A DNA stretch of 28,935 nucleotides from a virus (taxonomy: Duplodnaviria; Caudoviricetes): the IMG/VR virus record IMGVR_UViG_3300035180_001652, positions 1 through 28,935 of that record; one strand, given 5' to 3'. Under the pieces are notes generated by a model. It did no database searches. It was not told where the DNA came from and saw only the letters and a list, made by a program, of their open reading frames with translations. Each line of letters begins with the position of its first letter. The first letter of the stretch is position 1. Shown here in pieces: positions 14,603 to 19,138 of the stretch. The position numbers were made by a program, and so were the translations under genes.

Positions 14603-14928
14603 TCTCGCTGCTCCTTCACGCTCACCAGCTTCTCAAGGTAGTGCAGAGCCTTCTTCAAGTCTTGCAGACCGTCGCCCTTCCGGCCTGCGCGTGAGAGATA
14701 CTTGATCGCGTTCCCGCGCAAAAAGCCTTCAAACTCGGCCTCGCTCATCCAAGATTCCATCGCCGCCCACGGTTGAACTGCCAGTTCCTTGTAGTGGTCG
14801 CCGCCGATCTGGTAGCTATCAGCAAGCCGGCTTTTGTTCGCGGTGTATACCGTCCCGGCGAAACGGCATGTGTCATGATGCCGTTCACCGTCTTTTGCTC
14901 CGCACTTCACACAATACAAACTGCTCAT
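14599..14928 (-). CDS. DUF3310 family protein (T7 gp1.7 nucleotide-kinase-like) with N-terminal CxxC/HxxC extension
   Basis: QIGGDHY...GFLRGNAIKYLSRAGRKG...DLKKALHYL. ATG 14928 overlaps the polymerase stop. Confidence 0.85.
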   Translation of the reverse strand: MSSLYCVKCGAKDGERHHDTCRFAGTVYTANKSRLADSYQIGGDHYKELAVQPWAAMESWMSEAEFEGFLRGNAIKYLSRAGRKGDGLQDLKKALHYLEKLVSVKEQRE

Positions 14929-17546
14929 TTTGAATAGTTCCTTGCATATCCGCCTGCACAATTGAGCGGCACACCTTCCGCATAGCTCGGTGCCGCACGC
15001 ATCACGCACTTCGCAAACTCGAACGCCTCGTCCGCCTCGCCTTCCCGCGCCAAAAAGACAATCTCATCGTGCGTCATAGTGACCACGCGATACTTGCTCC
15101 TGATGGCAAGCATCTGGTCGGCCACAATGTCGCGGGCGATGGCCTGAACGATGTTCTCAACCAGCGCCGCGCCGTAGAGTCTGCGCTTGTTCGCCCCCAC
15201 ACCATACTCATACCCATCCGGCGTCAAGCGTAGGCTAGGATAGCGCAGCACACGGCCAGACGGCAAGCGAAGTGTCTCGAACTCGGTCATGATGAGACGC
15301 ATCCACTGGATGCGGTCGTCCTGCATCATCGCTCGCAGCATACCATCGGCACGCTTCCAAAGTCGCGTAATCGCGCCGTATGTGTTACGGTATGTAGCAA
15401 CATACTGCTGCGCGTCCTCAAGAGTTGTGTCGGGCTGCTTGGTGACGATCTGCGCGTGGAGCTTGGCATGGCCGACCCCATAGCCAAGCCCCAAGATACA
15501 ATTATGAACAATTATTGGCCCTTGATTCGTCATCACCATGAACCGGTTGTTCGGTCCGCAATTGAGCAAGTCGTAGACTGGCAAGTTCTCTTTCGAGGGC
15601 GAGGATTCTTTGTGATAAATCGTTCGCCTTTCTTCGGTTTGCAACGTTTTGCTTCCGAGTAACGAACCTGATATTCCCTGGCGCATAGGGGCCGTCAACG
15701 TCAATCCTGTCAAGCTCAAGCGTTGGATTGTCCCATCCAGGTACAGTCTGAACGTACCGGAGAAACGCTGCGCGATCCTCGCGCCATGCTGGATCAACGT
15801 AAATGCCCCTCCCACCATAACTGGGGAACGCTGCGCTCTTCGGATTGTGGCATCTACTAATGCACGACGACAATCTGCTAAGTAGCCGCGACCTATGCGC
15901 GTCGTCTGAAAGCGCGGCTTTATATTTCCACCATCGTTTCGCCCCCGCAGCGACTTTTGCGCACGCATTGCAGCGCGTTGAACGCCCTGCAAGAATGTTT
16001 TCACGGCTAACAATACCTTCCCACCCGCATGAGCACCGGCAAACAGGGTGCCACCCTGCCGCCCGCCCAGTGCGCGACCGATGCGGCTCAAACCGGAGCA
16101 CGGTAAGCTCGCCAAATCGAGCGCCGACCGGAAAAGGCCACGGTTTGACTGGACCTCTGACCACTCCCGCCATCCAAGTCCCGTCAGGATTTCGTGGTCC
16201 TCCGTCGCGGCGATCCCGAAACGCCGGAGCGTCGGTTTGTATCCCTGAAATTGCAGCCCACTGTGTTTTACCCATGATTCACCATCCCATACCAAGTCCA
16301 TAACCGAAACTTGAACTATAGGCTTCCACCCTTTGTCAGTCAAGACTTTAGTGTCGGCTGCCAAGCAGGTTTTCCCTACGAAGCGTTTGATCTCGTCAAT
16401 CTCTTCCCCCGGCCATATCCGCTCCGCGAACTTGACGTAAACGTCCTCACCTGCGGCAAACTGCGCCAGCAAGTCATCCTGGCCAGCCAGCCACGCGAGC
16501 ACGCGGGCCTCGATCTGGCTTGAGTCCACGACGACCAGCACATACCCGTCCGGGGCCGTCAAGCACTTGCGCAATGCCGAGCCTCGGTTCAGGTTCTGCA
16601 TGTTCAAGCCGTCCGCGCCCGACCAGCGGCCCGTGTGTGCGCCGTAATATTTGAGCGGCACTGGCATCGACCCGCGCCCGCTTACACCAAGAAACTTCGT
16701 CGTCCGCCGTAGCTCTGAGACGCTCTTAGCGGCCAGCCGGCCTTGGATGAGCACAGCCGCACGCGGATCGGCTTTGAGCGCCAGCATGTCGGGATCATCC
16801 TTGCGCAGCGTCTCGGGAACCTGAACCCCACGCGCCGCGAGCACTGCGGCAAACTGCGGGTTGCTCATCAGCACGTCGAGGCTCACCCCGGATGCTGCGA
16901 CAGCCGCGTCGCGCTGCGCCTCCAGCTCCGCCAGCCGCGCTTGAAGTAGCGCCGCGTCGATCGTCAACACTGGCTCAGTGAACATGCGCACTGTGCAGTC
17001 GATCAGCGCCAGCTCACGCTTGTAGCGAATTTCTGGCAGCTCCGACCGAAGGGCGGCATCGAGCGCGTGATGCAGCTTGCGCAGCAGCTCCACGTCCTGC
17101 CTGCAATACTCGGCCAACCGCGTCTCTAGCATGGGGTCGAGGTCGCGCACACCGAGGGTTTTTACCAGCGCGTCACCCTTCGCGCCCAAGCCATATCGCT
17201 CACTCAGCGCTGCCAGGGAATGCTTACCATGCACATCAGCTAGCCGCGCCATGCTCAGTGTGTCCACGATGCGCCGCGGCCTGACGTTGTAGTGCCAGGA
17301 CAGGATTGCCATATCGAACGCAGCATTGTGGGCGCACCAATATGCGTGTGAAAATCTCTCCGCGAGTTGGAGCAAGGCCGTAGACGCCGACGGGCCGGAC
17401 CGCCACCAGACAGAACCATCATCGATGCAATAGGCGAACCCATGCACCTTGAACCGCGCATCACGGATATATTCTTCCGTGGACATTTTCGACAAAGTGT
17501 AACTTTTGTCATAGTATGTTTCAAAGTCGATGTAGATTGTTGTCAA
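14925..17546 (-). CDS. polA: Family A DNA polymerase (3'-5' exo plus pol) containing one intein; 873-aa precursor, 584 aa after splicing
   Basis: DFETY and AHNAAFD (exo), HTGRWSG, motif A VDSSQIEARVLAWLA, motif B RFVGKT|CILGLGYG split by the intein, and motif C THDEIV. TTG start with GGAGAGAG RBS. Confidence 0.95.
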   Translation of the reverse strand: MTTIYIDFETYYDKSYTLSKMSTEEYIRDARFKVHGFAYCIDDGSVWWRSGPSASTALLQLAERFSHAYWCAHNAAFDMAILSWHYNVRPRRIVDTLSMARLADVHGKHSLAALSERYGLGAKGDALVKTLGVRDLDPMLETRLAEYCRQDVELLRKLHHALDAALRSELPEIRYKRELALIDCTVRMFTEPVLTIDAALLQARLAELEAQRDAAVAASGVSLDVLMSNPQFAAVLAARGVQVPETLRKDDPDMLALKADPRAAVLIQGRLAAKSVSELRRTTKFLGVSGRGSMPVPLKYYGAHTGRWSGADGLNMQNLNRGSALRKCLTAPDGYVLVVVDSSQIEARVLAWLAGQDDLLAQFAAGEDVYVKFAERIWPGEEIDEIKRFVGKTCLAADTKVLTDKGWKPIVQVSVMDLVWDGESWVKHSGLQFQGYKPTLRRFGIAATEDHEILTGLGWREWSEVQSNRGLFRSALDLASLPCSGLSRIGRALGGRQGGTLFAGAHAGGKVLLAVKTFLQGVQRAAMRAQKSLRGRNDGGNIKPRFQTTRIGRGYLADCRRALVDATIRRAQRSPVMVGGAFTLIQHGARIAQRFSGTFRLYLDGTIQRLSLTGLTLTAPMRQGISGSLLGSKTLQTEERRTIYHKESSPSKENLPVYDLLNCGPNNRFMVMTNQGPIIVHNCILGLGYGVGHAKLHAQIVTKQPDTTLEDAQQYVATYRNTYGAITRLWKRADGMLRAMMQDDRIQWMRLIMTEFETLRLPSGRVLRYPSLRLTPDGYEYGVGANKRRLYGAALVENIVQAIARDIVADQMLAIRSKYRVVTMTHDEIVFLAREGEADEAFEFAKCVMRAAPSYAEGVPLNCAGGYARNYSK
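15501..16367 (-). mobile_element. Intein (289 aa) inserted in polymerase motif B
   Basis: Starts CLAADTKVLTDKGWKPI (block A), has ATEDHEILT (block B TxxH) and VYDLLN (block F), and ends IIVHN followed by Cys+1 (block G). Removing it restores GKT-CILGLGYG. Confidence 0.95.
15502..16275 (-). CDS. HNH-like homing endonuclease encoded in an alternate frame inside the intein (start may be ATG 16173)
   Basis: GARFGELTVL, CRCSCG, STRCNAC, RCHNP....YGGRGI.V...W and LDRIDVDGPYAPGNIRFVT..QN..NRR. Offset from the polymerase start is 1271 nt, not a multiple of 3. Confidence 0.9.
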   Translation of the reverse strand: MGKTQWAAISGIQTDAPAFRDRRDGGPRNPDGTWMAGVVRGPVKPWPFPVGARFGELTVLRFEPHRSRTGRAAGWHPVCRCSCGWEGIVSRENILAGRSTRCNACAKVAAGAKRWWKYKAALSDDAHRSRLLSRLSSCISRCHNPKSAAFPSYGGRGIYVDPAWREDRAAFLRYVQTVPGWDNPTLELDRIDVDGPYAPGNIRFVTRKQNVANRRKANDLSQRILALERELASLRLAQLRTEQPVHGDDESRANNCS

Positions 17547-17849: not shown

Positions 17850-18062
17850 TTATGCCGCCCATCGATACAGCGCCACGCGCCGGGTTCCGAGCGGCTTGAT
17901 GACTTCAGCCACTTCGACCAGGCCAGCGCGGCGTAGGCGCAGCACGACGTTCGACACGCTGCGCACGGGTCGGCAAATTTCGGTTGCAATCTGCCGAATG
18001 CTGCGCGGCTCAGGCGCGTGCATCAGCAGATCGGCGACAAGGTAGACAGTTCGAGGGGTCAT
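17850..18062 (-). CDS. Winged helix-turn-helix DNA-binding protein
   Basis: SIRQIATEICRPVRSVSNVVLRLRRAGLVE pattern; ATGA overlap with the upstream gene. Confidence 0.75.
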   Translation of the reverse strand: MTPRTVYLVADLLMHAPEPRSIRQIATEICRPVRSVSNVVLRLRRAGLVEVAEVIKPLGTRRVALYRWAA

Positions 18063-19138
18063 CGCTCGATCCTCTTCGGACACCACGTCGCGGCCACGAT
18101 GTTAGCAAACCCTAGGTATTGCAGACACTTAAGCTCGTTACCATCGGCGCGAACCTTTGCGCGGAACGCATCCAGATCGCCCGAAAAGCACCCGGCCTCA
18201 ACCCAGGGGCCGCCCTCGACGTTGAACGCGTAGACCGTTCGATTGCCGCTGCCAGCGCCGGACAGGGCCAGCAGCGGATAGCCCGGTTTTGCGCGTTTCC
18301 CACCGAAGAAACACCCACTGCCGAAGGTGCAACGCCCGCCGAAGCGGCAAGCCTTGCCGAAGCTGCAAGACCCGCCGAAGCTGCAAGACCCGCCGAATCT
18401 GCACCCAAACCCGAAGCTGCAAGACTTGCCGAAGATGCAAGACTTGCCGAAACTGCAATACTCCTCAAAGGCGCAAGCCGTGTCGAAGCTGCACCACTCT
18501 CCGAAACTGCAAGACGCGCCGAAACTGCAAGACTCGCCAAAACTGCAACGCCCGCCGAAGCTGCAATAATCGCCGAAGCTGACCCCACTACCGAAGTGGC
18601 ACGCACCATCGAAGTTGCACCCACGGTCGAACTCGCATTCGCTGCCGAAGCTGCAACGCCTACCGAAATAGCACTCATCGCCGAAGCTGCAAGACTCGCC
18701 AAAACTGCAATCCTTGCCGAAACTGCATAAATAGCCGAAACCGCAAGACTTTCCGAAACTGCAAGACTCGCCAAAACTGCAAGACTCGCCAAAACTGCAC
18801 TCGTCTCTAAAACTGCAACGCTTACCGAAACTGCAAGACTCATCAAAGCTGCAAGACTCGCCGAAGACGCAATACTCGCCGAAACTGCAATACTCGCCGA
18901 AGATGCAAGAATTACCGAAACAGCAATACTCGCCGAAACTGCAACGCTTACCAAGGTTGCAACGATCACCGAAGTTGCATTGCTCGCCGAATTTGCAATC
19001 CTCGCCAAAAGTACAAGACGCGCCGAAACTGCAAGACGCGCCGAAACTTTGTACTTGCGAGTAGTCGCCAGTCGGGCACTGCCGAACTCCGTCCACCATC
19101 GGCAGGGCGTCAAACTCTGCTTGCGTAAAAACTCTCAT
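18059..19138 (-). CDS. Cys/Phe hexapeptide-repeat (beta-helix-like) protein with C-terminal GCF.G domain
   Basis: 41 consecutive xFGxxC units. C-terminal RTVYAF...VEAGCFSGDLDAF resembles the cap domain of phage repeat proteins. GAGGA RBS. Confidence 0.8.
   Translation of the reverse strand: MRVFTQAEFDALPMVDGVRQCPTGDYSQVQSFGASCSFGASCTFGEDCKFGEQCNFGDRCNLGKRCSFGEYCCFGNSCIFGEYCSFGEYCVFGESCSFDESCSFGKRCSFRDECSFGESCSFGESCSFGKSCGFGYLCSFGKDCSFGESCSFGDECYFGRRCSFGSECEFDRGCNFDGACHFGSGVSFGDYCSFGGRCSFGESCSFGASCSFGEWCSFDTACAFEEYCSFGKSCIFGKSCSFGFGCRFGGSCSFGGSCSFGKACRFGGRCTFGSGCFFGGKRAKPGYPLLALSGAGSGNRTVYAFNVEGGPWVEAGCFSGDLDAFRAKVRADGNELKCLQYLGFANIVAATWCPKRIER
18311..19048 (-). repeat. 18-bp coding tandem repeat, about 41 degenerate units
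   Basis: Plus-strand consensus CCGAA(A/G)CTGCAAGACTCG, with the period kept and no indels seen. Confidence 0.95.

Follow-up and report, generated by a model that had tools for sequence, protein, structure and literature searches.

The phage contig IMGVR_UViG_3300035180_001652 (Duplodnaviria; Caudoviricetes) was analysed over a stretch of 28,935 nucleotides (nt), which we call the window. It carries a family A DNA polymerase gene (PolA) that contains an intein, and the intein contains a second open reading frame (ORF), on the same strand but in the +2 frame, that encodes a putative nuclease. The gene lies in a phage replication region with primase, helicase, nuclease and exonuclease genes, and terminase and portal genes are nearby. 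The features of the locus, all on the minus strand, are listed below; the host frame is that of the polymerase, omega is the dN/dS ratio and pLDDT is the AlphaFold confidence score.

14925..17546, minus: family A DNA polymerase precursor gene (PolA), 873 amino acids (aa), or 584 aa without the intein
15501..16367, minus: intein of 289 aa in polymerase motif B (KT/CILG), delimited by an exact 867-nt gap in loci L002 and L249
16098..16367, minus: N-terminal splicing part, residues 1–90 (Cys1, T55xxH58); pLDDT about 97, host-frame omega 0.19–0.32
15609..16097, minus: in-frame filler loop, intein residues 91–253; pLDDT below 50, host-frame omega 1.58
15501..15590, minus: C-terminal splicing part, residues 260–289 (D266, His-Asn); pLDDT about 97, host-frame omega 0.27 (final 35 codons)
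15502..16275, minus: nuclease ORF, +2 frame, 257 aa, with a Cys-pair N-domain, YGGRG, a His-Me-finger-like core and a long C-terminal helix
16315..16343, minus: sigma70-type promoter motif TTGACT-17-TATAGT from a consensus scan, predicted to drive the hidden gene
16273..16288, minus: Shine-Dalgarno-like GGGATGGTGA (16288–16279) and likely start ATG (16275–16273), overlapping the intein codons W-D-G-E-S-W
15646..15711, minus: predicted PacI-like active site D189-R190...Y197...N201...N210, with no His

An earlier note, made from the letters of the window, had described a polymerase frame that runs unbroken through a 289-aa intein with intact splicing motifs, and inspection of the ORF and its motifs confirmed this. 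The 873-aa ORF (17546..14925) matches the Pfam family DNA_pol_A (E = 1e-21), and between 16367 and 15501 it encodes Cys1, T55xxH58, VYDL and a terminal His-Asn, followed by Cys as the +1 residue. Exactly these 867 nt are missing from the close relatives L002 and L249 (and from L005), and the empty-allele gene of L002 is 1,752 nt long. In the AlphaFold model of the intein, the two ends are confidently predicted and residues 91–253 are mostly predicted to be disordered; the model matches solved inteins (Ssp DnaB, gp41-1 and others) with a probability of 1.0 and a best E of 6e-4, indicating a HINT fold. The intein family profile matches the Mtu RecA intein (E = 3e-5). At their cut-offs, Pfam and NCBIfam called neither the intein nor the nuclease, and curated hidden Markov models stayed below cut-off for the intein. 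As an in-frame insertion that is absent from homologues, bears splicing motifs and has a predicted HINT fold, the element has the features of a class 1 intein; the motifs at its two ends are those of protein splicing, and selection acts on them in the host frame. It is not a canonical bifunctional intein, which has an endonuclease in frame between the splicing parts, nor is it a split intein in a fractured gene, a state seen only in the relatives L104 and L181. Consistent with the suggestion that the in-frame middle reads like off-frame text, a Pfam search of this segment gave no matches.

The hidden 257-aa ORF matches PHROG 374, annotated 'HNH endonuclease' (E = 1e-32), and its predicted fold has a pLDDT mostly above 85 over residues 50–240. 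The ORF overlaps both splicing parts of the intein, and in the window its TAA stop lies inside the terminal CAT AAT codons. To define the family, we collected 165 protein homologues of the nuclease (E ≤ 0.001) and 162 loci selected by the nuclease, leaving out L084 (a weak, unrelated match) and including duplicates and the window's own contig. The host ORF was long and open across the nuclease in 160 of the 162, always in the same phase, and all six GenBank phage records inspected (MR14, EBPR siphovirus 2, SO-1, Pubbukkers, VSe103 and Vibrio 97.13) have this layout. Both intein ends could be called in 156 of these 168 loci, and the phase of the nuclease was identical in all 156; truncation, a split, enlargement or failure to match the pattern accounted for the other 12. 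Dropping L096 for a miscalled end left 134 distinct inteins, every one with TxxH and [YF]D; the +1 residue is Cys in 130 and Ser in 4, and the counts of Cys1 and the terminal Asn are fixed by construction because these motifs were used to call the ends.

Contigs from four of four public sequencing runs cover the gene with zero insertions or deletions listed, so the compensating indel errors raised as a possibility in the earlier note were looked for and not found in these runs. Both frames are also open in three other assemblies (L003, L004 and L080). The placement of the nuclease stop within His-Asn, which the earlier note had singled out, holds in the window; we rejected it as a feature of the family, since it occurs in 40 of 156 loci and the others mostly end 22–61 nt earlier. 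Some family members depart from the common form: L180, L381 and L404 have longer inteins (about 350–380 aa), both frames open and an extra or duplicated N-terminal Cys domain in the hidden nuclease, and in L135 and L240 the nuclease core is interrupted by a stop while the host frame is intact, L240 having lost the promoter motif as well. Many nuclease homologues lie on contigs of approximately 905–975 nt, near the length of the intein plus short flanks; contigs of this size would be expected from an assembly-graph bubble between filled and empty alleles.

We estimated omega in both frames from 39 disjoint intein pairs that are 70–99% identical and free of indels. Across the nuclease core, omega was 0.15 in the nuclease frame (confidence interval 0.13–0.17) and 1.58 in the host frame (1.45–1.71). 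The pattern was reversed in intein codons 1–30 (0.19 in the host frame, 1.63 in the nuclease frame). Where the nuclease ORF overlaps the two splicing parts, omega was 0.32 and 0.27 in the host frame and 0.87 and 0.76 in the nuclease frame. When synonymous nuclease codons were permuted, a mean of 2.9 host-frame stops per locus arose, and therefore only about 6 of 134 loci would be open by chance; for the window alone the mean was 1.6 stops and the probability of none was 0.09. The zero host-frame stops among the 134 inteins of this test are by construction, and the unbiased figure is the 160 of 162 given above. In amino-acid composition the filler departs from expectation only in the ways that avoiding stops would produce (more Tyr, less Phe), and the comparison with permuted codons revealed no amino-acid selection on the filler beyond this. 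These comparisons indicate that the nuclease frame is under purifying selection and that the intein frame across the core is under stop avoidance only, as the earlier note had predicted. The filler loop is, on this evidence from sequence comparison, an off-frame read-out of the nuclease gene.

The beginning of the hidden gene can be placed from the pattern of stops in the +2 frame. Before intein nt 93 this frame contains 199 stops in 4,020 codons, and from nt 93 to the core it contains 6 in 6,658. Between nt 93 and the core, 125 of 130 inteins have no stop in this frame (21–23 expected), and in each of the five others a new ATG is found at nt 117 or 138. In 116 of the 130, an ATG is located at nt 93 or 99. 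Two internal starts had been proposed for the window. Of these we favour ATG 16275; the +2 frame is also kept free of stops ahead of ATG 16173, which makes the latter a less likely start. The start codon is where local folding is least stable (mean −4.9 kcal/mol, compared with −5.9 to −10.4 elsewhere), and in the window no stable hairpin covers it (z = +1.2).

A scan for promoter-like matches covered about 1,470 positions in each of the 134 loci and returned 141 matches. Of these, 99 fell at intein nt 25, and no other position collected more than 5. In the window the motif falls within intein codons 9–18 (Leu9-Thr10 and Pro16-Ile17-Val18), and the nuclease ATG follows 40 nt further on. Among 129 ungapped inteins, the nt-25 motif was present in 97, compared with 21 or 13 expected from synonymous recoding, and in a diverse subset it was present in 65 of 92. 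Leu9 is encoded by TTG in 97 of the 129, and it changed synonymously in 2 of 38 pairs, compared with 16 of 49 for the other Leu residues of codons 1–30. The motif was absent from controls with a closed +2 frame, namely all five distinct sister inteins with another, +1 nuclease and the mini-intein L398. Together, these patterns suggest that a promoter in the first codons of the intein is likely to switch on the hidden nuclease. In the open-access literature we found no description of this PolA intein family or of an intein-internal promoter.

Several observations weigh against this interpretation. The motif is below the promoter threshold in 35 of the 134 inteins, about 20 of them in one clade, and the split loci L104 and L181 keep the nuclease without the nt-25 motif, which counts against the motif being necessary. 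Additional synonymous constraint is slight or absent at codon 16 (5/27 versus 114/391), Thr10 and Val18. The enrichment of ATG at nt 93 is confounded by an enrichment of A before the Trp codon that is seen at a control Trp too, and the strength of the Shine-Dalgarno-like sequence is not above a recoded null (46.9% stronger than the null mean). Furthermore, the family members are related, and the counts are therefore not independent events. As a separate observation, the motif-less clade (L154, L157 and L208–L241) has a conserved TACTAT or TACTGT at intein nt 23–28, with a TTG 17 nt upstream that uses the last extein base; this may be a weaker, shifted promoter, and we note it as a lead only.

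One alternative is that the same homing element makes its nuclease by internal initiation on the long polymerase mRNA, with the promoter motif unused or of secondary importance. The intact nucleases of the motif-less clade and of the two split loci would fit this scenario, as would the weak folding at the start codon. Against it stand the motif at one position in 99 of 134 inteins, the synonymous constraint at Leu9 and the loss of the motif in the +1-type controls, and we consider this route unlikely, if the best of the alternatives to a promoter within the intein.

The earlier note had called the hidden protein a complete HNH-like nuclease. The ORF and its family assignment bear this out; the catalytic His does not, because the general-base position has no His. 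The protein is thus not a classic HNH or endonuclease VII enzyme, in which a His general base follows the metal-binding Asp. Instead, D189-R190, Y197, N201 and N210 are invariant in 48 of 48 aligned proteins, the active-site pattern is found in 126 of 134 loci, and Cys pairs lie at 81/83 and 102/105. The spacing D-R-x6-Y-x12-N is one that we take to be shared with PacI. A full structural search placed PacI (3m7k) second (Z 5.1, root-mean-square deviation 3.2 Å over 86 residues, model residues 114–215), a weak match that is tied with an unrelated axonemal chain and below the tool's reliable level, which weakens the case for a PacI-type enzyme. A sequence search against solved structures, PacI included, gave no match to the nuclease; Foldseek with the nuclease model gave none at E ≤ 0.001 (best, ScoMcrA, E = 0.15); and an Atlas structure search returned only unnamed viral clusters at 0.95. 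According to three papers, PacI uses Tyr in place of the catalytic His (PMC5714182, PMC3384342, PMC4081073), and viral homologues of PacI have been speculated to be restrictases (PMC5714182). The sequence pattern and the model suggest that the hidden nuclease has a PacI-like Asp-Arg/Tyr/Asn site, probably with a tyrosine base.

The distribution of the element is that of a mobile one: its presence is patchy, and empty alleles occur among close relatives. The filled locus L003 and the empty loci L002 and L249 come from the same metagenome, and joints that skip the intein were present in contigs of all four runs. The natural empty site reads GGGAAAACC/TGCATACTC; the reconstruction in the earlier note, which ended in TGTATCTTG after the insertion point, was incorrect. 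The first bases after the intein are TGTATCTTG in filled alleles and TGCATACTC in empty ones, and a shared TGTATCTTG in filled alleles is what co-conversion would give. Between L080 and the window, 34 of 867 intein positions are different, compared with 96 of 680 and 29 of 200 extein positions, and the downstream extein of L080 is closer to that of the empty L002 (9 of 200 differences) than to that of the window (29 of 200). Ordinary recombination between strains could yield part of this pattern.

Insertions occupy four positions in motif B (108, 43, 2 and 1 loci, with 2 unclassified), and the two main sites are intermixed on the nuclease tree. In the window, motif B at 15480–15500 (minus strand) reads K-T-C-I-L-G-L-G-Y, with Leu at the position that we take to be Phe762 of E. 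coli Pol I. The trees of the nuclease and the splicing part conflict at 18 of 59 supported splits, and their distance correlation (0.43) is the same as that between nuclease and extein. They therefore provide poor evidence that the nuclease and the splicing part travel as a unit; the congruence tests were uninformative and the conflict counts are not decisive.

We also considered whether the hidden protein might be kept for a job other than homing, such as restriction-like cutting of competitor or host DNA, or binding without cutting. The missing HNH His is compatible with such a role, as is the fact that PacI, a restriction enzyme, is the only nuclease matched by full structural alignment. 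However, the nuclease is nested in an intein at every locus examined, filled and empty alleles coexist, and the gene has been lost by deletion or stop in L380, L135 and L240, as expected of a selfish gene. A non-homing role is in our view improbable.

To view the family without selecting on the nuclease, we chose 80 loci by the splicing part. Sixty-seven have a contiguous intein with a +2 nuclease, six a contiguous intein with a +1 nuclease, three are mini-inteins and four are truncated; none has the nuclease in frame. The +1-type inteins (L333, L335, L358, L391, L392 and L399) have a more distant nuclease and occupy other polymerase sites, IYGGK/CVEN and GGKLVEN/CTQ; their nuclease is of the same D-R/Y type and starts later, and the nt-25 motif is absent. 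The mini-inteins lie at 659–1081 in L380 and at 2501–2905 in L398 and L400 (141 and 135 aa). In L380 the nuclease core has been removed cleanly and in frame, leaving both nuclease ends, the promoter motif and the ATG in place. In L104 (2409–3296) and L181 (2277–3176), split intein halves surround a free nuclease gene, and the C-terminal half restarts at an ATG just before PVYDI. The host frame is interrupted by 4 stops in L104 and by 2 in L181. In the tree both loci fall within the contiguous forms (support 84–89), from which they appear, with modest support, to be derived.

Two further explanations fare less well. The +2 frame equals a −1 shift and is open through the N-terminal part of the intein, so that a fusion made by −1 ribosomal frameshifting, an option raised in the earlier note, could be imagined; X XXY YYZ heptamers, however, occur in only 6 of 130 loci and at several positions, with no conserved slippery site, and replacement ATGs appear where the frame is closed, which makes this route very doubtful. 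That an in-frame nuclease was displaced by compensating indels, through assembly error or as a chance open frame, found no support and is refuted by the open frames, the common phase, the indel-free runs and the lack of in-frame cases among the loci chosen by splicing part.

We favour, with good though not complete confidence, the interpretation that the polymerase intein also encodes a +2 nuclease that is likely to be made separately from the predicted intein-internal promoter and likely to be a homing endonuclease. The HINT domain would assemble from the two ends of the 873-aa precursor, with a meaningless filler of about 165 residues looped out, and splicing would yield the 584-aa polymerase. 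Host sigma70 RNA polymerase would start a short-leader transcript near 16308, and translation would begin at ATG 16275. The nuclease, probably with a PacI-like tyrosine base, would cut motif B in relatives that infect the same cell and lack the intein, and during repair the intein and a few flanking bases would be copied into the cut allele. As for origin, a free-standing nuclease gene may have settled out of frame in a mini-intein; stops in the polymerase frame would since have been purged because the polymerase needs the whole precursor. The overall reading of the earlier note is supported by the split pattern of selection, by empty alleles in the same populations and by free-standing or intron-borne relatives of the nuclease in many phages at about 30% identity; empty polymerase genes would be cleaved and a mini-intein would have been invaded, as that note proposed.

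A broader proposal stands, in our judgement, at about even odds. Under it, these phage polymerase inteins would form an old, large and triple-coded family. Codons 1–18 of the splicing domain would serve at the same time as a host sigma70 promoter, those that follow as a ribosome site and start, and the rest as a tyrosine-dependent (PacI-type) homing nuclease, which host RNA polymerase would thus switch on independently of the polymerase gene. Out-of-frame capture would have occurred at least twice and never in frame, and contiguous dual-coding inteins would have given rise to split and mini-inteins. Elsewhere in the window, a 359-aa ORF (18059–19138, minus strand) runs across short Cys-Phe-Gly-rich repeats and has only weak matches, to PHROGs of unknown function.

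The out-of-frame layout of an intein nuclease is already published. Gosselin, Arsenault and Gogarten (bioRxiv 10.1101/2025.01.02.630785) described inteins of actinobacteriophages in which frame 3 holds an endonuclease VII-like gene. Like the window, these are contiguous inteins with a same-strand frame 3 (+2) nuclease and an unstructured in-frame middle, and invasion by a free-standing nuclease was proposed. Their 19 host proteins do not include a family A polymerase, their nuclease matched endonuclease VII (1E7D), and by their account the second ORFs as a rule do not reach into the splicing domain, unlike that of the window, which overlaps both splicing parts. Phillips, DeSimone and Gogarten (bioRxiv 10.64898/2026.09.14.751524) reported a cyanobacterial dnaX intein with a +2 LAGLIDADG gene, which shares the +2 ORF, frame-dependent omega, a putative Shine-Dalgarno sequence and empty, mini and full alleles in one population; it differs in its host, a subunit of the cellular DNA polymerase III, and in its type of nuclease. 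The word 'promoter' is absent from the main text of both papers. The ShiLan insertion in phage methylases (Arsenault et al. 2025, PMC11855218) likewise has a hidden out-of-frame HNH gene in an open host frame, but it has no splicing domain and encodes a classic HNH; its translation was posed as a question, with leaderless initiation proposed. The expression of hidden out-of-frame nucleases was left open in these papers, and a built-in promoter suggests how it might occur.

In the fractured genes of Dassa et al. (2009, PMC2677866), a split intein is combined with a free-standing endonuclease that is expressed separately between the intein halves, in some cases with its own control elements. L104 and L181 share this layout; the window differs in that its intein is contiguous and the nuclease is overprinted. 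Dual-coding inteins may be one route to split inteins. With PacI and group 20 of the His-Me finger nucleases, the hidden protein shares the lack of a catalytic His and the presence of Cys pairs, and probably also a Tyr base with Asp and Asn as metal ligands, although the match is weak; PacI, by contrast, is a restriction enzyme, and its site is 8 bp long. It may be that a PacI-like enzyme lacking the His acts here as a homing nuclease.

Among the closest known systems are the annotated polymerase inteins of the Dhillonvirus/Jerseyvirus phages SO-1, Pubbukkers and VSe103, which carry the same element at the site K-A/C-E-L-G, with the promoter motif present and a hidden nuclease 44–46% identical to that of the window. 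Among the three, the nested HNH ORF is annotated only in the Sodalis phage SO-1 (L244, 870–4058), in which GenBank calls the insert a type I self-splicing intron; its ends are intein motifs. The element is present in cultured E. coli phages, and out-of-frame intein nucleases are not rare singletons but form a family of hundreds of loci missed by annotation pipelines. To the layout established by Gosselin et al. (2025) and Phillips et al. (2026), the present comparison adds +1, mini and split relatives without any in-frame case, a predicted His-less PacI-like site and a promoter motif within the intein itself.

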